Shown here piece by piece: positions 13,395 to 63,100 of a stretch of DNA of 64,000 nucleotides (its first letter is position 1; each line of letters opens with the position of its first letter). Where the stretch lies: positions 507,918 through 571,917 of the forward strand of contig JAKLDG010000001.1 in assembly GCA_022703645.1 (NCBI GenBank), read 5' to 3'. A program made the position numbers and the translations under genes. The stretch comes from Patescibacteria group bacterium. GTDB lineage: Bacteria > Patescibacteriota > JACPGU01. The notes under the pieces were generated by a model. The model saw only the letters and a list, made by a program, of their open reading frames with translations, ran no database searches and had not been told where the DNA came from.

Positions 13395-13561
13395 GGTGAA
13401 ATAATTAATTTAATATGAAAGTATCCACTTGTTAAGTGTATCAAAGTTTTCCCCTTAAGTCAATGCTATATATCCAATTGAATATTGTAAAATTGAGAAT
13501 TGATTGAAAATTGGAAATTGAAAATTTAAAATTTACTATAAATTATAAATAAAAACATAAT

Positions 13562-21013: not shown

Positions 21014-21496
21014 TTAATTGTCTTTCTGATAGTCTACCACAGGATATGCCATCAAGCAATCATGCAAAAATTCTTCTCCCGCTTTTTTGACCCATCCTGA
21101 ATAGCTACAAAATTTATAATTTTTCAATTCTTCGAAATCCTTAACCAACCCATGCTTGATTGGATTGCCATGAATATAGTTAAAATGTGAATAAAAATCT
21201 TTTTCATCTCTTATACACCAATCCCAATATTGATAAAATACTTTTCTGCCTTTGCAACCATCAATTTCATTGAGTTTTTTTGCAATGACGCAGTTGCATC
21301 TATTTATTATTCTCGGTATTCCGACACCCTTGCGGGATGTCATTCCGATTTCAAGTAATAAATGGTAGTGGTTATCCAAAATCACAAATGCATATAAAGA
21401 AACATCCGTATCTTGAAATATATTAGAAAATATTTCAAATACAATCTCTTTTCTATTTTTTAAGATATTTAATCCATCTAAACACCTTACGGTCAA
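21014..21496 (-). CDS. IS200/IS605-family HUH (Y1) transposase, REP-associated tyrosine transposase (RAYT)-like
   Basis: HUH motif LYAFVILDNHYHLLLEI and catalytic-Tyr region HFNYIHGNPIKHGLV, the latter typical of RAYT/TnpA_REP (Y-x-H-x-NP-v-k-h-g-l-v). 160 aa. I see no obvious IS200-type terminal hairpins flanking it. Confidence 0.65.
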   Translation of the reverse strand: MTVRCLDGLNILKNRKEIVFEIFSNIFQDTDVSLYAFVILDNHYHLLLEIGMTSRKGVGIPRIINRCNCVIAKKLNEIDGCKGRKVFYQYWDWCIRDEKDFYSHFNYIHGNPIKHGLVKDFEELKNYKFCSYSGWVKKAGEEFLHDCLMAYPVVDYQKDN

Positions 21497-41157: not shown

Positions 41158-41301
41158 AAAAAAATTTTATTATACCAGAATATTTTAGCAGAAATAAGGT
41201 AAAGTTGCAAAAAATTTTCAATTTTCATTTCTCAATTTTCATTGAATTTTCAATGATTCAATTCTATAATTTGGAAAATTGAAAATTGTAAAATTGAAAA
41301 T

Positions 41302-42423
41302 TTATTTGGATATTTCCTTGATTATTTCTTCCGCAATGATTTTACTGCTATTTTCAGGAAAAATACTTTCCATATTTTTTATCATTCTATTTCTTGTCTT
41401 CTTGTCTTTAATCATAAAATCAATCTCTTCTAAAAATTTTTCGCCATCCAAAAATTTTTCATCCAAAATCGAGGCAACGCCAATTTCTTTTAAAAATTGA
41501 GCGTTCATACTTTGATGATCAGCCGCAGCAGAAGGTAGCGGTATAATTATCGCAATCTTTTTTAAAGCAATTATTTCCGCGATTGAATTTGCTCCAGCAC
41601 GTGAAACAACCAGATCTGCATTCGCCATCATTTCCCCCATTTCTTCTCCTATGTGTGAATAGATAAGATAATCTTTGCGATCCTTCTCGTCCAATTCAAA
41701 ATATCCTTGTTTGAAATAATTCGCTTCTTTCACGCCAGTCTGATGAATTAAAACATATTTTGCAACTAATTTATCTAAAATCTCATTTATGTGCTTGTTT
41801 ATTGCGCTCGAACCCTGTGATCCTCCAAAAACAAAAACTATGGGCTTCTTTGGATTAAGACCATACTTTTTATAAAACTTTTGTTTATTTTCTACTATTG
41901 ATGAAATTTCTTCTCTAACAGGATTTCCGGTAAAAACACATTTCCCTATTGGTAAGTTCTGGTATTCTTCAACAGGAAATCCTAGATAAATCTTTTTTGC
42001 AAACCGCAAAAGTATTTTATTTGAAAGCCCCAAGATGGAATCTGATTCGTGTATTAAAAATGGAATTCTCAGTAATGCTGCAGCCATACAGAGTGGAACG
42101 GTTACGAAACCGCCTTTGGCAAAAATAATTTTCGGTCGATTTAAAAGTAGAATAAAAATAGATTGGATAAAGCCAAGCGCAATAAGTAATAAATCTGTAT
42201 AATTACGCCAGTTGCCATATCTTCGCCATTTACCGGCAAATATTCCTTTATATCTAATTCCCCTCGAAAGAACGATTCTTTTTTCAATACCAAAAAATCT
42301 TCCAATATAAATAAAATCGATATCTATTCCCTTCTTTTTAGATATCTTCATAAGATCATCTATTATCGCTATATTTGGCAGTACATGACCTCCCGTACCA
42401 CCACCAACAAAAATTATCTTCAT
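41302..42423 (-). CDS. murG: Undecaprenyldiphospho-muramoylpentapeptide beta-N-acetylglucosaminyltransferase (GT28)
   Basis: MKIIFVGGGTGGHVLP (G-loop). C-terminal GT28 motifs (VSRAGANSIAEI...) are present, in the canonical position between ftsW and murC. Confidence 0.9.
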   Translation of the reverse strand: MKIIFVGGGTGGHVLPNIAIIDDLMKISKKKGIDIDFIYIGRFFGIEKRIVLSRGIRYKGIFAGKWRRYGNWRNYTDLLLIALGFIQSIFILLLNRPKIIFAKGGFVTVPLCMAAALLRIPFLIHESDSILGLSNKILLRFAKKIYLGFPVEEYQNLPIGKCVFTGNPVREEISSIVENKQKFYKKYGLNPKKPIVFVFGGSQGSSAINKHINEILDKLVAKYVLIHQTGVKEANYFKQGYFELDEKDRKDYLIYSHIGEEMGEMMANADLVVSRAGANSIAEIIALKKIAIIIPLPSAAADHQSMNAQFLKEIGVASILDEKFLDGEKFLEEIDFMIKDKKTRNRMIKNMESIFPENSSKIIAEEIIKEISK

Positions 42424-47880: not shown

Positions 47881-48007
47881 AAAATGTTTTAGAAATTTTC
47901 AATTTTCAGTTTTCAATTTTCATTGTAAGTATCGCTTCGCGATGTATTTATTTGAAAATTGAATCATTGAGAATTGATTGAAAATTGTAAATTGTAAAAT
48001 TGGAAAT

Positions 48008-49795
48008 TTACTTTACCAGTCCCTTTTCTCTCTTGATCTGTTCTTCCTTCCATACCTCATCCGGTGGAATTTGGTAATAATTGAGAATGCCTTTTGCCAT
48101 TTCTCCGAAAACCGGAGCGGCTGTAGATTCCGCCCAGATAACATCCTTTGGAACATTTATTCTTACAACCATTACAAAAAGCGGGTTATCCGTAGGACCG
48201 AAACCGATAAATGAACCAATAAATTTATCTGTTTCATAACCTCCGGTTTTTCGAGGAATTTGCGCTGTACCTGTTTTGCCCCCTATGCGATAACCCTTTA
48301 CTCTCGCCTGCTTTCCATGACCTCTCTCTGCAACACTAACCATCATTTCGGTAATTTTTTTTGCTGAATCCTCACTCAACGCTCTTCCAATTATTTTTGG
48401 ATCAACTTTTTGAACCTTTCCATTTTTATCAATATATTCTTTAACAATATGTGGCGCAACCATCAACCCACCATTTGCAACCGCACCCATTGCTTGAGCT
48501 AATTGAATCTCGGTAGTATTAATACCTTGACCAAATGACATTGTCGCTAAATCAACCGGTATCGCATCCTCTTTATCTCTCACTGCTCCTGGTGATTCGC
48601 CATCAATCTCTATCCCGGTACGCTTTCCGAAATTAAAACTATTAACGTAATCATAAAATTTATCTTTTCCTGTTTTCTGAATCATCCAGACCATACCAAC
48701 ATTATCAGAGTTTTCTAAAACCTGAGTCATTGTTTCATAGCCATAAGGTTTTTTCTGTGAATTCCATATTACCGCGTCCTGCACTTTAACATTTGCATCA
48801 AAATATTCTCCGGTTTCAGGTGTTACCGTTCCACTATCAATACCAGCTGCCATTGCAATTAATTTAAACACCGAACCCGGTTCATAGGCATCAGAAATCG
48901 CATTACACTGAAAAATACTATAGTCTTTTACGTCAGTATATTTTGCTGGATCATATGTCGGCCATTCTGCCAGCGCGAGAATCCCTCCGCTTTTTGCATC
49001 CATTACCACGATTGACCCACTGTCTGCTTTGTGGTCTTCTACAGCTTTCTTAACTTGATTTTCTGCCATAAATTGAATGACTCGATCTATAGTCAGAACT
49101 ACATCTTTACCATTCTTTGGCATCACTACTTTGCTGTCAGCAACTGTTATCTGACGTCCAAGAATATCGCGTTCCGAAATTATCTTTCCTTCCTGACCTT
49201 TTAAAACATCATTTAGATAACCCTCAATGCCATATTTACCTTCACCTTCACCATCAACGAAACCTAAAAATTTTGCTCCCATACTTCCTTCTGGATAATC
49301 GCGGTAAGTTTCGGGAATTAATACAATTCCTGGCAATTTTAGGGCCTCAATTTTCTTGCTTACTTCATCAGGCAGCTTCCGCTTTAACGGCGGTATATAT
49401 ACTTTCTTTTCATTTAAAAGCTTTAAAATATCTGCCGCGGGCATATCTATTATCGGTCCCAAACCATTTGCCACCGCATTTTCATCCTCAACCTGCTGTG
49501 GAATAATCATCACAGACCAAAAAGTTTTATTTGTTACCAATGGATAATGGGTATCGCTATAAATGTCGCCAACATAAATTTCACCGCGTGCCGGCATAAT
49601 TTTCTGTTCTTTGTATCTCTGATCATAAGCTAATTGTTCATAGTGCGCATGCTGAATGACTTGCTTTTGAAAAAGACGTATACATATACCTCCAAAAACA
49701 AGCAATACTATAAAGAAAACAAAGGTAATACGCGCTTTTGTACTCCCCTGCTCTTCCATTCGCAAATTTGAACTAACAGCATTAAACCCAAACAT
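48008..49795 (-). CDS. ftsI: Class B penicillin-binding protein (FtsI/PBP2 transpeptidase)
   Basis: TM anchor and PBP-dimer domain. Transpeptidase motifs: SxxK in GSVFKL, SxN in SDN, and KTGT. It holds the ftsI position after ftsL. Confidence 0.85.
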   Translation of the reverse strand: MFGFNAVSSNLRMEEQGSTKARITFVFFIVLLVFGGICIRLFQKQVIQHAHYEQLAYDQRYKEQKIMPARGEIYVGDIYSDTHYPLVTNKTFWSVMIIPQQVEDENAVANGLGPIIDMPAADILKLLNEKKVYIPPLKRKLPDEVSKKIEALKLPGIVLIPETYRDYPEGSMGAKFLGFVDGEGEGKYGIEGYLNDVLKGQEGKIISERDILGRQITVADSKVVMPKNGKDVVLTIDRVIQFMAENQVKKAVEDHKADSGSIVVMDAKSGGILALAEWPTYDPAKYTDVKDYSIFQCNAISDAYEPGSVFKLIAMAAGIDSGTVTPETGEYFDANVKVQDAVIWNSQKKPYGYETMTQVLENSDNVGMVWMIQKTGKDKFYDYVNSFNFGKRTGIEIDGESPGAVRDKEDAIPVDLATMSFGQGINTTEIQLAQAMGAVANGGLMVAPHIVKEYIDKNGKVQKVDPKIIGRALSEDSAKKITEMMVSVAERGHGKQARVKGYRIGGKTGTAQIPRKTGGYETDKFIGSFIGFGPTDNPLFVMVVRINVPKDVIWAESTAAPVFGEMAKGILNYYQIPPDEVWKEEQIKREKGLVK

Positions 49796-49915: not shown

Positions 49916-50272
49916 CTATTTCATAGCCAAAGAACCGCTGATACTACTAAAGTACTTTAATTCCTTCATCGGCACAAACGAAAGATCTTTTGATTTCTCT
50001 GAGATCTTGTTTAATGATTCAAGTCTGGCAGCTTCAACTTGCAATCTCTCATTTTCAGCCTGAACTTTTGCTTTTTTTTGCTCCAGGTCTTGTAAAGCGT
50101 AACCTTTTGTGGTTATCTGGTTTGACTGCGCAAGATAAAATAAGCTAATTAATGAAAATATTAATATTGTAATAAAGCTCAAAGCAACGGGACCAAGCCT
50201 CAAACCACTCTTACGGTATGTAGAGTGATATCTGCCTATTCTTGCTTGTTTTCTTCTATTTAATATTTTCAT
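49916..50272 (-). CDS. ftsL: Cell division protein FtsL
   Basis: 118 aa with a single TM (VALSFITILIFSLISLFYL) followed by a coiled coil (KKAKVQAENERLQVEAARLESL). It lies between rsmH and ftsI. Confidence 0.7.
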   Translation of the reverse strand: MKILNRRKQARIGRYHSTYRKSGLRLGPVALSFITILIFSLISLFYLAQSNQITTKGYALQDLEQKKAKVQAENERLQVEAARLESLNKISEKSKDLSFVPMKELKYFSSISGSLAMK

Positions 50273-50296: not shown

Positions 50297-51172
50297 TTAA
50301 ATGACCTCTGCGACTCGCATTTTGGCGCTTCTTGATAATCTGTTTTCAATCTGTTCAGATCTGCCCGGCATGATCACTTTTTTATTTATGATTTTTAGAA
50401 TACCTTGTTTGTTTTTTTCTCTTAAAAAATTTTTTACTATTCTATCCTCTCCGGAGTGAAAAGATATTACTACCAGCCTTCCACCGCTTTTTAATACTTT
50501 TAAAGAATTTTCTAATGCTTTTTCTAAGTTTTTAAATTCTTCGTTTACCTCAATTCGCAGAGCCATGAATGTCAGCGTTGCCGGGTTTGTTTTGCCGTGT
50601 TGCGCTTTTACAGATCTGACAATTGCCGCTAAGTCATCTGTTGTTTCTATTCTTTTCTTTCGCCTCACTTCAGTAATCTTTTTTGCTATTACCCTTGCAA
50701 ATCTCTCATCTACATTTTTTAAAACTTCTTCCAATCTTTCCCTGGTATATGAATTTACTACTTTCTCTGCAGTAAAATCTTTATCAAGGTCTAATCTCAT
50801 ATCTAGTGGCTCATTTTTTAAAAAAGAAAAACCCCTACCACTTTCTTTTATTTGATAAAGGTTTGTCCCCAAGTCGAATACAATCCCATCAACTTTGCCA
50901 ATGTCATTTGATAACAGAATGTCAGCAACATCGAAAAAATTACGATTGTATAAAGACAAGTTTTTGTAAGCACCAAATTTACTTTTTGCATTTTTGTAAA
51001 TTTCCTTATCTACTTCTATTCCGATTACGTGACCGGTAAAGTCTTTCTTATTTAATATTTCACCAGTATGACCACCAAACCCGAATGTCGCATCTATATA
51101 TATACCATTAGGTTTGATTTCCAAAGCTTCAACCGCCTCTTTCTTCAATACTGTAGTGTGAATGTTTTTCAT
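50297..51172 (-). CDS. rsmH: 16S rRNA (cytosine1402-N4)-methyltransferase
   Basis: GIYIDATFGFGGHT SAM-binding motif; 291 aa; dcw position downstream of mraZ. Confidence 0.9.
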   Translation of the reverse strand: MKNIHTTVLKKEAVEALEIKPNGIYIDATFGFGGHTGEILNKKDFTGHVIGIEVDKEIYKNAKSKFGAYKNLSLYNRNFFDVADILLSNDIGKVDGIVFDLGTNLYQIKESGRGFSFLKNEPLDMRLDLDKDFTAEKVVNSYTRERLEEVLKNVDERFARVIAKKITEVRRKKRIETTDDLAAIVRSVKAQHGKTNPATLTFMALRIEVNEEFKNLEKALENSLKVLKSGGRLVVISFHSGEDRIVKNFLREKNKQGILKIINKKVIMPGRSEQIENRLSRSAKMRVAEVI

Positions 51173-51230
51173 TATGATTGGGTTTAAGCTTTCTAACTTT
51201 TACTTTTTATCTTCAAGTAAGTAATTAGCA

Positions 51231-51394
51231 GAAGCCTGAAGTCGGTAGGTTTGTTTTTGTTTTTGTTCAAAACATTTAGGATGGAGGTTCCCGCCCTTTC
51301 TTGAGAACAATATTTGTTCGCAAGAAAGGGCGGGATAAATTTTTTGTTTTTGTTTTATCCCGACTATTATGTCGAAATGTTGACTTCAGGCTTG
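51231..51394. repeat. Inverted-repeat / palindromic element (MITE- or REPIN-like) in the unusually long mraZ-rsmH spacer
   Basis: Outer inverted repeats GAAGCCTGAAGTC (51231-51243) and GACTTCAGGCTTG (51382-51394), 12/13 matched. Flanking T-rich direct repeats (TTTGTTTTTGTTTTTGTT at 51251 and TTTTTTGTTTTTGTTTTAT at 51341). A central 45-bp near-perfect GC-rich palindrome CCCGCCCTTTCTTG-agaacaatatttgttcg-CAAGAAAGGGCGGG (51290-51334) has a loop that is itself a hairpin. Confidence 0.6.
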
Positions 51395-51632
51395 TTATAA
51401 AAATCTTTTAAGAAGCCTCTGATAAGCAATATTTAGTTATAAAATTTAAGATTTTTTAGATAAAATTCATGAATAAAATTTTGAGTTTAGTTGATACTAA
51501 GCGAAAAATTTTTGAAAGAATTTTAGCAAAAAAGATAAATTTTTAACAAATACATTGTTTGTCTGAGGTTTCTTCTTCCTCCTAAAAGATCCTTAATCAG
51601 TTTTTAAATGCGGCTACGTATTTTGCGATTTT

Positions 51633-52064
51633 TTAAACTCCAAGAGACGAGAGTTTATCCGCAATATCTGAGGAATTTTTCTCGATATTTGCTTCATACT
51701 TCTTCCAGGCACTCTCGTCCCAGATCTCTATTCTGTTATAGAGTCCTGCAACGACAATGTCTTTCTTTAGATGAGCAAAATCCCTCAAATATTGTGGCAA
51801 AACTATTCTTCCTGTTTTATCAGGAACGATATCCATTGCTCCTGCAAGCATTAAACGTGCGTAATCACGTGCTGATTTATCAGTAGTTGGCATATTGCCG
51901 AGCTTCTCAGCAATCACATCCCACTCTTTTTTTCCGTACATAAACAGGCAGTCATCCAACCCGCGAGTCACTACAACACCTTCGTGAAGTTCGCCTCGGT
52001 ATTTTGGAGGGGTTGCAATCCTTCCTTTGTCATCAATTGTGTATGAATACTCGCCAATGAACAT
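51633..52064 (-). CDS. mraZ: Transcriptional regulator MraZ
   Basis: MFIGEYSYTIDDKGRIATPPKYR... contains the duplicated SpoVT/AbrB-like MraZ halves; it is the first gene of the dcw cluster. Confidence 0.9.
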   Translation of the reverse strand: MFIGEYSYTIDDKGRIATPPKYRGELHEGVVVTRGLDDCLFMYGKKEWDVIAEKLGNMPTTDKSARDYARLMLAGAMDIVPDKTGRIVLPQYLRDFAHLKKDIVVAGLYNRIEIWDESAWKKYEANIEKNSSDIADKLSSLGV

Positions 52065-52154
52065 CTTTTCTTGGTTTAAAGTTTAATGATTTTCACCCGT
52101 TAGAAGTACGGGTACTTTTAGCCCTCTTTTTTACTTATTGTGAACCTGATGGAT

Positions 52155-52192
52155 TATCCACTTTTCCCCACTCTTATCCACAATTTCCCACT
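52155..52192 (-). promoter_or_regulatory. MraZ operator: four direct GTGG(G/A) repeats at exact 10-bp spacing upstream of mraZ
   Basis: On the minus strand the sequence reads AGTGGGaaattGTGGATaagaGTGGGGaaaaGTGGA, with CCAC at + strand 52157-60, 52167-70, 52177-80 and 52187-90. MraZ is known to bind GTGGG-type direct repeats in its own promoter. Confidence 0.6.
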
Positions 52193-52243
52193 CGCTTGAT
52201 ACATAATAAACCTTTTTTTAAGTCTTTGCAAGCAAAATAAAGG

Positions 52244-57186: not shown

Positions 57187-60126
57187 CTAATATTTTAACT
57201 GCCAGCCGGCAATAATTATATCCGGATTGATCTGAAGTGAAGGATAGTTATATTTGTTTAATTCAACTAAATCAACCCACATATTTTCTACTCCATATAA
57301 CACGAAAGCGATGCTTGAAAGCGAATCACCGCCTTTTACTATATAAATATTTTCACCAGCACCTTGTGTTGACAGCTGATATTTGAATACCCATCCACTA
57401 TAAATTATATTTGGTATCGTGACAAGTGTGGAAAACTGTTCGCTATTCAACGCAACTAATATTTCTCTCGTAGTACCTAATTGCGCCGCAATACTATAAA
57501 GGGAATCCCCTGGTTGAACTACATAAAATCCATAAACGATTTCTTGGATTGGGTTTACGATCGATTCGGGGGTAGGTTCTGGGATCGGCGTTGGAGTTGG
57601 TTCAGGTATAGGAGTTGGAGTGGATTCTTCTGGAGTTGGTATGGCCTCAGAGATAGGTTCAGGAATAGGTTCGGAAGTTGGTGGAATAAAAGTATATACA
57701 GATGGCGGTTGTGGAGCTGTTTCGATAGTCCAGGAATAATTAGCAGGAGTTAAATCAACATTCCCTACTAGATCTGTAGCCTTAACTTCAAATGAATGAA
57801 CTCCTAAAGATAACCCGCTATAATTAACCGGGCTGGTACATACTGCAAATAAAGCTCCGTCAACCCGACATTCGAAAGTTGAGGCTTCACTGGAGCTGAA
57901 AGTGAAGGTTGCATCGGTTGAATAAGTTACCAAAGCTGGGTTGGAATCTATGATAGTATTTGGGCTAGTTGAATCAATATTTATCGGATTAGCTGAAGAT
58001 AGAACAGATTTATTAGCAAGCGCATCTTCTGAATAAATACAGATGTAAAAACCATTATTGGTTTCGTCTGATTGGTTCATAGAATCAGTATCCAGTTTTG
58101 TAAAGGTATCGGTAATAGAACAAGTGTTGGTAGCGAAATAATCCCATTTTTTCACCACAGCTGCGTCCCAGTCACCGGTAATAGTATCACTTGCGACTGG
58201 ACCTATTTCCACATCGTTTGCAAAGGAAAGAGCCGGAGCGGTAGCATCTATATTGATTTTATTGGCAGAAGCCAAAACAGATTTATTCCCAAGGGAGTCT
58301 TCACCATAAAGGCATATATAGAAACCATTATTGGTTTCGTCTGATTGGTTCATAGAATCAGTATCCAGTTTTGTAAAGGTATCGGTAATAGAACAAGTGT
58401 TGGTAGCGAAATAATCCCATTTTTTCACCACAGCTGCGTCCCAGTCACCGGTAATAGTATCAGAAGACACTGGACCAGCAGCTATATCATTGGTAAAAGA
58501 AAGTGCTGGTGGAGTTGCATCTATACTAATACTATTAGTAGAAACTAAGATAGATTTATTACCAAAACCGTCCTCCCCATAAAGACAAATATACCTGCCG
58601 TTATTGGTTTCATCTGATTGGTTCATAGAATCAGTATCCAGTTTTGTAAAGGTATCGGTAATAGAACAAGTGTTGGTAGCGAAATAATCCCATTTTTTAG
58701 TAGTTGAATCTCCCCAAGAGCCTATAATAGTATCACTCTGAATTGGACCGGCTGCCACATCATCCACAAAGGAAAGAACCGGACTTAAATTATCTACTCG
58801 GAAGCTTGCCGAAGTCTGAACAGATCCATCTACCAGACTATCACTTGGAGTTACTCTAATCTGGTAATTGCTTTGATCTAAGCCATCCAAAGATCCCCCA
58901 CCATTCGAAGCATTTTTGGTATCCCAAACTATATTTAATGTTACCGCGCCACCGGAGGTATCAATCGGATTGCTAGTTCCTATCTGATAAGCATTACTAT
59001 TATTCAGATCAATAGCCCCAGACGAGGGTGTTGCAAAAGCAAGATAAGGAGCATACCAATTCATTCCCCCATCCGGTGAATATTCTACTTTTAGTTTAGT
59101 ATTTTGTAAGTTTGCATCAGAAATATTAGTCTGAATATTTACATAACCAGTACCATCAGTCGGCTGAGAAATAAATGAAGGAATGGTCGCCACGGGCGCA
59201 ATGTTTGCCGAAACAACAACCTCATTACTTAATGCGGATACAAGGGTACCCGATGTTGCGCATATTTTTATACTTTCTGCTGCAGAATATCTCATCATTG
59301 TATAACTTTTTACCCCTGAAGTTACTGCTGTGCCTGATGCCGGGTTAGAGAATAAAACACCCGAACCTAGTGTCCCCCCGCAATTCTGATCTGAAAGCAC
59401 CGGGGTAAGCGTAATTGTAGAAGTATTATCAGTCGTTACTGTATGACCAAATTGATCTTGTACTGCAATCACTGGTTTAACTGCAAAACCAATATTAATA
59501 ATAGCAGTAGCCGAAGGTTGATTTGTAAAAATAAGTTTATTTTTGGCTCCTATAGCTTGGGATAGAGCACCAAAACTAGTTGAATCGTTCACTATCCCCA
59601 CGATTGCTCCCGTTCCAGGGTTTGCTGATGTTCGATAAATATTTCCTGAAGAAGGAATAACGGATCCGTCAATAGCGCGTACTTGCAGCCCGCTAATAGT
59701 CATTACATCCGATTTATTTGCTGTACCATCTGTAGAAAAAGTAATTGTTATTGTTGTGGCCGTAACTGCTATAGAACTAGATGTTATATCTCTAGCTGCC
59801 GTATAAGTAACTGTCCCAACACCAGGATTAAATGACCAGTTATTTGGTGCTGTTAAAATTAAAGTGGTATTTGTTTGACTCGCTGCAAAGTCACCATTTG
59901 CTCCCTCGGTAATGACAATATTGCCAAGCGTCGTCCATGCTGGAGTTGTGGCATTTGCCGCTTTGTCTGCAGAAATATTTGTGCCTCCAGAAGATGGGGT
60001 TACATTTGCTGCTGCTTCAGTTTTCAGACTCATATAAACTCCGACGGACAGCAAAAAAATAATCACTCCGATTAAAAAGAATCGTAGATATTTATTTTTT
60101 ATGGTTTTTAGAAAAAGATTTTCCAT
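57187..60126 (-). CDS. Large secreted surface protein with three near-identical 91-aa tandem repeats, a Cys-containing Ig-like domain, a Pro/Thr/Glu linker and two C-terminal LysM-like repeats
   Basis: 979 aa. Signal anchor (FLIGVIIFLLSVGVYMSL). The triplicated unit reads ...KKWDYFATNTCSITDTFTKLDTDSMNQSDETNNG(F/R)YIC(L/I)Y.ED.... The Ig-like domain reads TFTFSSSEASTFECRVDGALFAVCTSPVNYSGLSLGVHSFEVKATDLVGNVD. The linker is PEPISEAIPTPEESTPTPIPEPTPTPIPEPTPE. The C-terminus has YVVQPGDSLYSIAAQLGTTREILVALNS.. and YIVKGGDSLSSIAFVLYGVENMWVDLVELNK...AGWQLKY. Confidence 0.6.
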   Translation of the reverse strand: MENLFLKTIKNKYLRFFLIGVIIFLLSVGVYMSLKTEAAANVTPSSGGTNISADKAANATTPAWTTLGNIVITEGANGDFAASQTNTTLILTAPNNWSFNPGVGTVTYTAARDITSSSIAVTATTITITFSTDGTANKSDVMTISGLQVRAIDGSVIPSSGNIYRTSANPGTGAIVGIVNDSTSFGALSQAIGAKNKLIFTNQPSATAIINIGFAVKPVIAVQDQFGHTVTTDNTSTITLTPVLSDQNCGGTLGSGVLFSNPASGTAVTSGVKSYTMMRYSAAESIKICATSGTLVSALSNEVVVSANIAPVATIPSFISQPTDGTGYVNIQTNISDANLQNTKLKVEYSPDGGMNWYAPYLAFATPSSGAIDLNNSNAYQIGTSNPIDTSGGAVTLNIVWDTKNASNGGGSLDGLDQSNYQIRVTPSDSLVDGSVQTSASFRVDNLSPVLSFVDDVAAGPIQSDTIIGSWGDSTTKKWDYFATNTCSITDTFTKLDTDSMNQSDETNNGRYICLYGEDGFGNKSILVSTNSISIDATPPALSFTNDIAAGPVSSDTITGDWDAAVVKKWDYFATNTCSITDTFTKLDTDSMNQSDETNNGFYICLYGEDSLGNKSVLASANKINIDATAPALSFANDVEIGPVASDTITGDWDAAVVKKWDYFATNTCSITDTFTKLDTDSMNQSDETNNGFYICIYSEDALANKSVLSSANPINIDSTSPNTIIDSNPALVTYSTDATFTFSSSEASTFECRVDGALFAVCTSPVNYSGLSLGVHSFEVKATDLVGNVDLTPANYSWTIETAPQPPSVYTFIPPTSEPIPEPISEAIPTPEESTPTPIPEPTPTPIPEPTPESIVNPIQEIVYGFYVVQPGDSLYSIAAQLGTTREILVALNSEQFSTLVTIPNIIYSGWVFKYQLSTQGAGENIYIVKGGDSLSSIAFVLYGVENMWVDLVELNKYNYPSLQINPDIIIAGWQLKY
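57971..58790. repeat. Intragenic tandem repeat, 3 copies x 273 bp (approximate bounds)
   Basis: The string gtttcgtctgattggttcatagaatca recurs at 58061, 58334 and 58607, i.e. at exact 273-bp spacing. Long stretches are identical between copies, and the + strand track ORFs 58072..58344 and 58345..58548 have identical N-termini for this reason. The repeats lie in frame within 57187..60126. Confidence 0.85.
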
Positions 60127-60145: not shown

Positions 60146-63100
60146 TTATTCAACGGTTAACTGCCAATAAATTCCTTTATCTTCCATCCAAACCAATCCT
60201 TCAACTACTGGCGTAAAATATGACTTATAAGTCCCGGCGTCCGCCGGAGCTTTAATTTTAAATGTAAATCTTCCTACTTCTCCTGGTTTTACTTCTGCTG
60301 TATCAAAAGAAGTACAGCGGTTTGGAGCTATCCAGTCGCTATTCGCAAATTCCGAAGTATAATCTTTTTGCTGAGTTGGACTTCCATAAATAGAGCCTGT
60401 ACCGAACCTAACTGGATTTGCACCGTCTTTGAACCAGCTAACCGTACCCGTGTTTTTCAGTTCAATCCAAACTTCAATCTCCTCCCCCGCTGAAATCTGG
60501 GTAGGATAGCCAGACTGACCGACTACCTCATAACCGTAAGTTGAAGTTGAACCTAAAATATCATATTTCAATAACCAGTCAGAATAAATAACATTTGCAC
60601 CACCGTCTAAACTGAGATTAGTATACTGATCTTGATTTAGTTCAACCAATCTTCTCCATTTCTCCTGATCGCCATAGAGTTTCAGCGCTATCCATTGCAG
60701 ATCTTCACCAGGTTCAACCTTATAGTAGCCGAATTCACCTGTTGGAGCTACCGTAGGTAATTCTTTAAATCTTAGTTTCCATCCTGCAACTATTATACTT
60801 GGATCACTTTCCAATGAAGGGAATATATCTTTATTTAATTCGACTAATCGCGTCCATTGTTCTTCATCCTGAAATAATTCGCGGGCAATTGATTTCAGCG
60901 AATCGCCATCTTGAACTATATAATAATCCCCTATTATTTTTTGCACTTCTGGCTGAGCTTGAGGAACTGGTTGAGAAACCGGCTGTGATTGATTTTCTGC
61001 TATTGGTTCTGATGTTTGTTGAATGTTGCCAAATCTCAATTGCCACTCACTATATATAATGTCAGGTCGGCTAACCAGACTTGGGAATGTATCTTTATTT
61101 AATTCTACGAGATCTCTCCACCTTTCACTATCGCCATAAACTTTTTCTGCAACTGTCTTAAGGTTTTCTCCTGGTTGAACAGTATAAATCCCTGAATCAC
61201 TTCTGACTGAAATTTCCCAGAATAAACCAATATCATTCATCCATCCTGTTCCATCAGCAACTGGAGTAAAATATGCTTTGTAATTTCCAATTTGCGTTGG
61301 AGCTTTAATTGTAAATTCGAACCTTGCCGTATCTCCCGATTCAATAAGAAAGTCTGGGATACTGGATGCTCTGTTTGGTGATAACCAATTTTCAGCGGCA
61401 AACTCAGAAATATAATCTCTTTTTTGGGCAGAGCTTCCAAACGATGACCCTGTTCCGAGACGGACATTACTGTCCCAAGCAACAGAACCGGTATTTTTTA
61501 CTTCAACCCAAACATCGGTAGTCTCGCCAGGTTTTAAAGTGCTTGGGTATGGTGATTGAGATACCAGTTCATAAGAATATATTAGTTGTGGTTCCGGTTG
61601 GATTTCAACTATTGGTTCAGGCTGTACCTCAGGTTGAGGTTGGACTTCGGGCTGTTCTTGACCATCTCCTACAACCGTAACTTCCCAATACAAACCAATA
61701 TCAGTCATCCAAGTTACTCCGTCTGCTACCGGTGTGAAATAAGCTCGATAAGTACCAGGCGTCGTTGGAGCTTTGATTGTAAATTGAGCCTTGGCATCGT
61801 TGCCTGGTTCAACATAGCTGCTGATTGCAGTAGAGTTTGGATTAATTATCGAAGTAGGTCTGTTTACAGATAGCCAATTGATATTTGCAAATTCTGATGG
61901 ATAATCTCTCTGTTGACTTGGACTACCATACATAGAACCGGTTCCGAGACGAACTTTGCTATCCCAAACAGCTGTACCGGTATTTTTTACTTCTATCCAG
62001 ACATCGGTTGTCTCACCCGGTTTTAGTGTACTTGGATATGGAGACTGAGAAACCAATTGATAATTATAACCTTCAACTGGAATGGTTTGCTCAATCTGCT
62101 GTTCTGGTTGTACTATTTCTTGCGGCTGCTCAGGTATTTCAGGTATTACCTCTGGCTGTAATATCTCTTCTGGTTGTTCTAACTCCGGCTCTTCGATAAT
62201 AGGTTCCGGTTCGGTTACCTCTACATTTTCACTAAATATTATTGAATCTGATACAGAACCTGAAACATTTCCTGCCGCGTCTTTATATTTTGCATAAACT
62301 GTTTTTGTACCATATCCAGTTGCCAAAGCCCAAGCCTTCGAATTAACAAACGTCTCCCAGCTGCTGCCGATAAAGTAAGCGTTGTTAGAAATCATCATTG
62401 ATATGGCATCAGTAGCGCCCAACGTCAGGGTAACGCTTGCCGATGCAGTTGAGCTTGCTCCGCTATTAATTGAGATAGAAGTGTTGGTCGGAGGTGTTGT
62501 ATCTTGAATTAGATTATTTCCTCCACCACTATTGTTTTGCTGGCTAACACTAATACTCCAAGTATAGCTTTCTGGCGTTGCATCGCTATTTCCTGCCAGG
62601 TCAACCGCGTAAACATAAAATGTGTGACTGCCATTTGCCAAACCTGAATAATTCTTTGGGCTGGAACAAGTAGTATAATAGCTACCGTCTATTTTGCATT
62701 TAAAAGTTGAAGACTCATCCGCGCTAAATACGAAAGTAGCGGATGAAGAAGTTGCGTTTAACGCCGGTGTAGAAGATAGAGTAGTTTCTGGAGGGATACT
62801 TTCAATTATATAACCATTTTCTATCCCAAAACCTGCGCCACTAATAGAATCCAGGGCTTTGATTTTTAGATCACCACTGCTTGTAATTGAAATCGAACAG
62901 TTCACTGTATAGCTATCAACCTGCGTACAAGCAAAATCAGTGAAACCAGCGGTAGTAGCTCCATCTACTGAAACACCGGCGCTATCAACTCCCCCGCTAT
63001 CGGTAATATGAATTGTCGTATTTGTAATATTTGCCGAAGAAGCTTTCGTTGGAGCAGAAATCGAAATAACTGGAACCGTAATAGTCACCGCGTAACCATT

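Follow-up and report, generated by a model that had tools for sequence, protein, structure and literature searches.

Rut sites occur in leaders and intercistronic regions, and well-known examples are rutA-boxB-rutB of lambda tR1 and the mgtA and corA leaders of Salmonella. Such a site consists of unstructured RNA that is C-rich and G-poor over roughly 60-80 nt, and Rho prefers YC dinucleotides. Another type of architecture is that of 6S RNA, in which a large bubble of two strands lies between a closing stem and an apical hairpin, and which can be embedded in an operon transcript. By location, the described system nearest to the locus studied here is the mraW RNA motif (Rfam RF01746), which is found in Actinomycetales upstream of mraW/rsmH and has an unknown function (Weinberg et al. 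2010, PMC2864571). It is listed there as probably cis-regulatory, with only a question mark entered under "switch" (PMC2864571). In the stretch of 64,000 nucleotides from a Patescibacteria group bacterium analyzed in this study (64 kb, hereafter the window), mraZ and rsmH are separated by a spacer that contains an inverted repeat and a long palindrome. We conclude, with a probability of about 0.9, that this element forms the core of a conserved structured RNA specific to its lineage, located on the sense strand between mraZ and rsmH of CPR3-type Patescibacteria. The preliminary description of this DNA had offered a structured RNA on the operon strand as its alternative to a mobile element, and the comparative evidence supports that alternative. 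The RNA was previously uncatalogued and is confined to a small CPR clade. As a candidate cis-regulatory RNA motif it belongs to a familiar class. What is unusual are its G-free clamped strands and the Shine-Dalgarno-like and anti-Shine-Dalgarno-like boxes that accompany them.

The element lies at the start of the dcw operon. The first gene of the operon is mraZ (51633-52064, (-) strand), whose stop codon starts the spacer, and the first gene 3' of the spacer is rsmH (50297-51172, (-) strand), which encodes the 16S rRNA C1402 N4-methyltransferase and has no Shine-Dalgarno sequence. Proteins identical to the products of these two ORFs are recorded as Pfam MraZ and Pfam Methyltransf_5, respectively. 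An ftsL/DivIC-like gene (49916-50272, (-) strand), recognized by a weak DivIC match, comes next, followed by ftsI (48008-49795, (-) strand), for which the Pfam assignment is that of an identical protein, and then by mur genes. The ORF coordinates confirm the spacer length of 460 bp given at the outset (51173-51632), and the identical MraZ is also encoded on several metagenome contigs, each with the same 460-bp gap between mraZ and rsmH. Upstream of mraZ, a terminator-like hairpin at 52279-52244 marks the end of the preceding gene. It is followed by a promoter-like site, still upstream of mraZ, and four GTGGR MraZ boxes with 10-nt spacing are located at 52157-52191, just 5' of mraZ. This arrangement of a promoter and four boxes is kept in the relatives, and such a promoter-operator layout agrees with autoregulation by MraZ. 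Because a terminator scan found no terminator-like site on the sense strand of the spacer, the module is predicted to be part of the mraZ-rsmH mRNA and to be co-transcribed with the dcw operon.

In the direction of transcription, the module of the window begins with an upstream box that is also the 5' strand of a pairing named P0 (51578-51595, (-) strand; UAAGGAUCUUUUAGGAGG, with AGGAGG at 51578-51583). The 3' strand of P0 (51398-51415, (-) strand; CUUCUUAAAAGAUUUUUA) pairs with it in the minimum-free-energy fold. The loop between the two is occupied by an AT-rich insertion of about 160 nt (51416-51577, (-) strand), which splits the upstream box from the core, folds as a long imperfect hairpin and is found in the window only, being missing in all the relatives. 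It holds a promoter-like TTGTTA-18-TGcTAAAAT at 51549-51520 according to a promoter scan. We considered whether the insertion is a repeat and rejected this, as blastn against the window returned low-complexity matches only. The core is closed by P1, with its 5' strand at 51382-51393 ((-) strand; AAGCCUGAAGUC) and its 3' strand at 51232-51243 ((-) strand; GACUUCAGGCUU), both supported by folding and covariation. Within P1 there are, in order, an optional small hairpin P2 (51357-51378, (-) strand; AUUUCGAC / GUCGGGAU) with two U.G pairs on the (-) strand, a G-free single strand J2/3 (51340-51356, (-) strand; AAAACAAAAACAAAAAA), the central hairpin P3 (51289-51335, (-) strand; 15 + 6 bp and a 3-nt loop), a single-stranded C-rich box that is anti-Shine-Dalgarno-like (51275-51288, (-) strand; ACCUCCAUCCUAAA), and a second G-free strand, the C/A-rich J3/1 (51248-51267, (-) strand; AACAAAAACAAAAACAAACC).

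Most of the repeats first noticed in the spacer can be found again in this architecture. The outer inverted repeat is P1, in which AAGCCTGAAGTC at 51232-51243 pairs with 51382-51393 at 12 of 12 positions; its arms have no other good copies in the 64 kb when 2 mismatches are allowed. The central palindrome, described as 45 bp long, is P3, at 51289-51335 with 22-nt arms, 1 mismatch and a 3-nt loop. The T-rich direct repeats are present as well, since TTTGTTTTTGTTTTTG-type tracts flank the palindrome on both sides when the + strand is read. The statement that the element is GC-rich holds for the helix bases only, and as a whole the element has 38% GC against 36% for the window. Folding is highly stable on either strand (z = -9.2 for the + strand and -12.2 for the - strand), and 0 of 200 shuffles were as good.

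RsmH homologues mark the organism as a CPR3-like Patescibacterium and form a graded series of relatives. To place the element in its lineage, mraZ-rsmH junctions of relatives were obtained by RsmH homology (L006, L008, L009, L010, L012, L013, L039, L042, L043 and L044), and two more (L029 and L033) were added by a pattern scan. This makes 12 distinct relatives and, with the window, 13 members; the 13 sequences form one clade and several of them are closely related. RsmH of the relatives is 54-78% identical to that of the window. The module is present at the mraZ-rsmH junction, on the sense strand of the operon, in 12 of 12 relatives, with spacers of 164-592 bp. In an outgroup with 49% RsmH identity, mraZ and rsmH are 3 nt apart and there is no module, which is an empty site. 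The preliminary description had looked to this junction for signs of mobility, and the only empty site encountered is that of the 49% outgroup, all 12 relatives carrying the element. Since it occupies the same site in every one of the relatives and is absent from the outgroup, the module arose once in this clade and was retained afterwards.

All 13 members fold individually into the shared architecture, with z-scores from -5.8 to -13.9, and the core measures 105-169 nt. The helices differ widely among them. P1 has 11-20 bp. P2 is represented in the relatives by 0-2 hairpins, some of which have UUCG, UUUG or GCAA loops. P3 has 5-22 bp, and its sequence and length are entirely different between subgroups (for example CCCGCCCUUUCUUG..., CUCUCUCUG..., CUCUUUUGAGC... 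and GUAUCU...) with the pairing retained. Unlike the helices, the single-stranded boxes are conserved at the sequence level. All relatives carry the box (A/U)GGAGGG(Y)U..AAGG about 10-25 nt 5' of P1, with little or no variation in 11 of them, whereas that of the window is degenerate (AGGAGGAAG). In the G-free strand between P2 and P3, AAAACAAAAACAAAA is conserved across the members. The ACCTCCATCCTA of the C-rich box is invariant in 11 of the 13 and absent in the two most divergent members, L012 and L044. The second G-free strand starts with CACCUCCAUCCUA(A/U)A, also written CACCUCCAUCCUAAA, and ends with AAAAACAAAA, after which the return strand of P1 follows. Altogether, the 596 nt of the single strands enclosed by P1 comprise 336 A, 144 C, 113 U and only 3 G (56% A, 24% C and 0.5% G). 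The C/G ratio of these junction strands is 48, compared with 0.95 for the remaining intergenic DNA of the window when its sense strand is read. This composition, compared below with that of a rut site, would equally fit an S1/30S standby site, in a genome that makes almost no use of Shine-Dalgarno sequences, or a site for a KH/Hfq-type protein.

The helices are supported by covariation. With RNAalifold on a MAFFT alignment, 11 of the 13 pairs of P1 are changed on both sides and 96% are paired; in P3, both-side changes occur in 5 of 9 pairs. Over P1 and P3 together, compensatory changes are found in 16 of 22 pairs and standard pairs fill 92.5% of the cells, compared with 79.6% in column shuffles, none of 500 of which equals it; these two figures, like the scores given below, come from an alignment that was fitted to the P1 + P3 covariance model and so favors the structure, and the P1 result is identical without fitting. 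Sliding the 3' partner by 1-3 columns reduces the paired cells to 32-50%. The covariation score is 0.417 against 0.210 for the shuffles, none of the 500 scoring as high, and 0.05-0.14 for the slid controls. For the P0 pairing (51578-51595 with 51398-51415), no covariation was detected by RNAalifold, and it is therefore given here as a conserved sequence box only.

The functional strand can be read from the same alignment. The consensus helices contain 26 G.U cells, valid on the operon strand only, versus 8 A.C cells, the kind that turns into G.U when the opposite strand is read. The sense folds of the individual members contain 42 G.U pairs, mostly in P3, and the UUCG and GCAA tetraloops read correctly on the sense strand only. 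Minimum free energies did not tell the strands apart; the antisense strand is rich in U and pairs with little selectivity, which makes this comparison uninformative. On the sense strand itself, no intrinsic terminator is formed by P3, as a terminator requires a GC-rich hairpin directly followed by a U-tract on the transcribed strand and here ACCUCCAUCC comes 3' of P3.

Comparison with catalogued RNAs gave no known family for the module. A scan of the whole window at Rfam gathering thresholds returned six tRNAs only. The preliminary description had also pointed to Rfam for the spacer, and a permissive scan of 51100-51700 produced only meaningless look-alikes of microRNAs and snoRNAs, driven by the palindrome; in a permissive scan of seven related loci nothing was found at the motif. 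Neither the window spacer nor the scanned relatives matched models of 6S RNA, SRP RNA, riboswitches or ribozymes. Like the mraW motif, the module is a structured and conserved RNA that precedes mraW/rsmH within the dcw cluster. However, when location, taxa and model score are compared, the two differ in lineage (Actinomycetales versus Patescibacteria) and the model does not fit, as RF01746 gave no match at E up to 10 in 51100-51700 or at E up to 0.5 in the seven related loci. The module shares a closing stem, a two-stranded bubble and an apical hairpin with 6S RNA, but its shortest core is only 105 nt, its apical helix goes down to 5-9 bp and its bubble strands have 25-45 nt. In the literature, we found no relevant description of an RNA between mraZ and rsmH in CPR.

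Several other identities were considered and rejected. A conserved peptide in the spacer does not agree with insertions of 21 and 40 nt among the members, nor with the lack of a conserved start codon after the GGAGGG box; an AUG-initiated mini-ORF (MTSDQ...) exists in the L006-type members only. A retron-like ncRNA, with a1/a2 repeats and a long msd hairpin, was rejected because no reverse transcriptase is encoded close by and the element keeps one fixed place in a housekeeping operon. A boxA-like antitermination signal, CCCUUUAAAACAA, is present only in the L006-type subgroup and not in the window, L010, L012, L043 or L044. Mimicry of 16S h44/h45/3' tail (UGAAGUCAUAA ... CACCUCC) was likewise set aside, since the likeness is seen in a subset only and the sequence of P1 covaries freely.

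The reading preferred at first was that the spacer harbors a non-autonomous MITE/REPIN-like element, mobilized in trans by the transposase encoded at 21014-21496. It has obvious attractions, namely a perfect 12-bp terminal inverted repeat, a long internal palindrome, a small size and a REP-associated tyrosine transposase homologue in the same window. The ORF at 21014-21496 is indeed a homologue of these transposases, though below the cut-offs (NCBIfam NF047646, 68.2 bits with a cut-off of 80; Pfam Y1_Tnp, 22.6 bits with a cut-off of 23), and it lacks the N-terminal part of the profile. The copy number speaks against mobility. With all filters off, a covariance model (R1) has one match in the 64-kb window, at 51228-51397 on the (-) strand with 97 bits; the runners-up are 14.6 bits elsewhere and 17.7 bits on the antisense of the same site. 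On the related loci, about 290 kb in all, the model has one match per locus. In the window, the inverted repeat and palindrome do not recur beyond chance. A pattern across the conserved internal boxes was also run against JGI metagenome contigs, IMG/VR and a GTDB set with one genome for each species. It truly matched only mraZ-rsmH junctions from related Patescibacteria, and the rest were unrelated coding sequence matched by chance. The one relative in the GTDB set, JAQULF01, was matched at its mraZ-rsmH site alone, and because it belongs to the scanned genome collection this single match amounts to a whole-genome test. Plasmid and phage records had no similarity to the element, and the GC palindrome of the window type was not present in viral contigs, so these metagenome, viral, plasmid and phage searches yielded no other loci. 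No direct repeat or target-site duplication flanks the inverted repeat. Beside the RAYT-like ORF there are no REP-like hairpins or element-like sequences, only AT-rich palindromes inside the ORF. Thus, in contrast to a MITE or REPIN, the element is single-copy, sits at a fixed orthologous position in all 12 distinct relatives, has stems that evolve by compensatory changes and is unlinked to the transposase gene. Since it is unique where searched and conserved in place, the very observations on which the preliminary description had made its mobile reading depend, we regard that reading as refuted and give it almost no credence. It follows as a caution that inverted repeats should not be taken as a sign of mobility just because a transposase gene is near. 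A role for the + strand, be it as an intrinsic terminator (P3 with its T-tract), as an antisense RNA to dcw or as a protein-bound DNA palindrome, is very improbable too. The appearance of a hairpin plus T-tract on that strand, noted early on, is real in the window, and P3 followed by a U-rich tract is terminator-like there and in L010, but in most relatives it is broken, because the G.U pairs of P3 on the sense strand turn into C.A mismatches. Moreover, the tetraloops are correct on the sense strand only, no + strand gene needs termination here, and the stem sequences vary freely with compensation, unlike a protein operator. As G.U pairs and tetraloops mark the sense strand, the + strand hairpin plus T-tract is a by-product of P3 and the A-rich strand.

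For the function of the structured RNA, we suggest that it probably acts in cis, making its G-free strands available to a trans factor and thereby adjusting how strongly the genes after mraZ are expressed. In such a mechanism, P1 and P3 would serve as a scaffold that holds two G-free, C-bearing strands unpaired and close to each other. A factor with affinity for single-stranded RNA would land on these strands and, once bound, would govern the extent to which transcription or translation continues from mraZ into rsmH-ftsL-ftsI. Depending on the member, 20 to about 195 nt lie between P1 and the rsmH AUG, and the spacing between the mraZ stop codon and the module is also variable. The former makes direct masking of the start site unlikely and suits a mechanism that tolerates different distances. 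Among the possible versions, Rho-dependent attenuation is the likeliest single one, and we propose it tentatively and by analogy. The hairpin and the two strands on either side of it, C-rich and poor in G, would then form a rut-like Rho loading site, and the upstream GGAGGG/UUUUAGGA could mask the internal CCUCC/UCCUAAAA patch. By sequence, UUUUAGGA in the upstream box can pair with UCCUAAAA in the internal one, and GGAGG with CCUCC, and RNAduplex finds the pairing always, as it must. Neither the GGAGGG:CCUCC nor the UUUUAGGA:UCCUAAAA pairing has covariation support, both sides being invariant or, in L012 and L044, lost together. The likeness to known rut sites lies in two unstructured, C-containing and G-poor strands with a hairpin between them, in an untranslated stretch of an operon where a variable distance is tolerated. 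The differences are that the strands of the module are dominated by A and that an outer clamp helix is not present in known rut sites. Most of the junction strands are A, with C in AC context, and YC steps are limited to the CCUCC box and a few CC/UC. A gene for Rho was not found among the 10 window ORFs scanned, and our literature search returned nothing relevant on Rho in CPR.

Other factors and other modes of action could make use of the same strands, and we consider each of them unlikely to a different degree; the serious competitors are a 30S/S1 standby site, a protein site and a processed small RNA. A ribosome standby or translation element, in which the A/C-rich strands recruit 30S/S1 for rsmH after a long untranslated gap, is unlikely in our view, though it agrees with how genes start in this genome. 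Shine-Dalgarno sequences are absent from 41 of 48 gene proxies, whose leaders are A-rich (for example aaaacaaaatATG), so the A/C strands resemble native ribosome landing sequences; many gene starts also have A-rich periodic tracts (repeat families D2-D4). The L006-type members have an AUG directly after the CA-rich strand, and in some members a short upstream ORF from the AUG of the P1 3' strand could be driven in this way. However, this AUG is missing in the window and L043, the rsmH start is 160-195 nt away in three members, and the 3' strand of P1 intervenes between the strands and the start codon. Processing of the operon transcript into a small RNA that acts in trans, with the C-rich box CACCUCCAUCC as a seed against G-rich mRNA, seems distinctly unlikely. 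The most conserved stretch is indeed an unpaired C-rich box in a stable scaffold, and the module is self-contained, its distance to both flanking genes being variable, but on the sense strand it lacks both a promoter and a terminator that would be its own, two members are entirely without the box, and GGAGG-type ribosome-binding sites are rare in the genome, which leaves few obvious targets. The little use of Shine-Dalgarno sequences also means that GGAGGG and CACCUCC are not ordinary ribosome-binding signals here. They could instead form an intramolecular switch, (UUUU)AGGAGGG against CACCUCCAUCCUAAAA, that exposes or hides a loading site, or CACCUCC could mimic the 16S 3' tail, and we hold either to be improbable. 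If one of them were true, the condition of the ribosome pool would be linked to the expression of RsmH, which methylates 16S C1402, and of the division genes behind it. Quite improbable are a riboswitch that senses a ligand, for instance SAM as the cofactor of RsmH, and a site bound by a specific protein, which could be RsmH or a cell-division regulator with a KH domain. There are conserved unpaired nucleotides within covarying helices upstream of a SAM-dependent enzyme, and the mraW motif is a precedent (PMC2864571). Nevertheless, long low-complexity G-free A/C strands are unlike known ligand pockets, there is no conserved alternative terminator or start-site-masking helix, and no known riboswitch model matches. 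Hence we favor a cis-acting module that offers its G-free strands to a trans factor, with Rho as the tentative candidate.

The Patescibacteria (CPR) are uncultured bacteria with tiny genomes, and their RNA-based regulation is almost uncharted. This study adds a covariation-supported RNA in the most conserved cell-division operon, at the boundary between the gene for the repressor MraZ on one side and those for RsmH and the essential ftsL-ftsI-mur group on the other. The G-free strands together with the Shine-Dalgarno-like and anti-Shine-Dalgarno-like boxes, set in a genome with very little use of sequences of this kind, make the module a compact object for biochemical tests. In E. coli, the balance between MraZ and RsmH is important for viability. 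If the module meters read-through or translation, it would represent a clade-specific uncoupling of mraZ from the rest of the dcw operon.

The RAYT-like ORF that the preliminary description proposed as the mobiliser of the spacer element (21014-21496, minus strand) is a homologue of REP-associated tyrosine transposases, with scores of 68.2 bits for NF047646 and 22.6 for Pfam Y1_Tnp, both below the respective cut-offs of 80 bits and 23. About the first 24 profile positions are missing, and the ORF overlaps the end of argS. With no REP-like hairpins adjoining it, the ORF may represent a copy that has been domesticated or is decaying. Better candidates for dispersed repeats or promoter-associated elements than the structured RNA module between mraZ and rsmH are the intergenic stretches of 8-nt periodic GAAAATTG / CAATTTTC units (13465-13539, 41212-41307 and 47893-48013). 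These are found in several spacers of the window, two of them within the dcw cluster. In two related loci, L008 and L010, the extra spacer is taken up by AT-rich periodic sequence of a similar kind. Longer repeats, namely three tandem 273-nt copies that are 75-83% identical and a 210-nt pair (57968-58786 and 61370-62068), sit within two ORFs of very great length (979 aa and >1284 aa), and presumably correspond to domain repeats in giant surface proteins.

In the mraZ-rsmH spacer of the window, the loop of the hairpin formed by the upstream box, i.e., the conserved GGAGGG-type sequence 5' of the outer closing helix P1, is occupied by about 160 nt of inserted AT-rich sequence (51416-51577, minus strand; 18-27% GC). 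The insertion is exclusive to the window's species and forms a long imperfect hairpin on folding. Inside it lies a promoter-like TTGTTA-18-TGcTAAAAT site (51549-51520) from which a second rsmH transcript could start, 5' of the core module.

The spacers of the relatives have features of their own. In L006-type members, an AUG opens the 3' strand of P1, immediately after the CA-rich strand, and starts a short ORF of 6-18 codons (MTSDQ...; L006 3752-3793, also in L009, L039, L042, L008 and L033). In four members (L006, L009, L039 and L042), this ORF stops 11-33 nt short of the rsmH AUG. At the P1 3' strand, the window and L043 lack a start codon. Extra GC-rich hairpins that share no sequence relationship with the module and are not followed by a U-tract are scattered in the AT-rich spacers of L008 (3615-3665), L010 (3495-3520 and 3870-3895) and L039 (878-912). 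L029 has, 3' of its module, a short-repeat block of the AATATCTTAATATC type (1366-1451) that forms a 22-bp inverted repeat immediately 5' of rsmH.

Shine-Dalgarno sequences are hardly used by this genome, being absent near the start in 41 of the 48 long ORFs taken as gene proxies across the whole window. Gene leaders are A-rich with an occasional C, e.g., aaaacaaaatATG, and gene starts repeatedly show periodic A-rich tracts. The 5' UTR of the window's mraZ carries GAGGGCUAAAAG (about 52100-52111, minus strand), near-identical to the GGAGGGCUAAAAGG box in the mraZ-rsmH spacers of relatives and followed by an ACCCGU...ACGGGU hairpin; in L009, the mraZ leader contains GGAGGGUUAAUAACC. At 52157-52231 (minus strand), a promoter-like TTGCAA-17-TATTAT site closely precedes four GTGGR boxes at exact 10-nt spacing. 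The same layout lies 5' of mraZ in L006, L008, L009, L012, L013, L029, L039, L043 and L045, and is kept throughout the clade and also in the outgroup, where mraZ and rsmH are 3 nt apart. This arrangement of boxes and promoter-like site suggests an operator for MraZ at the dcw promoter.
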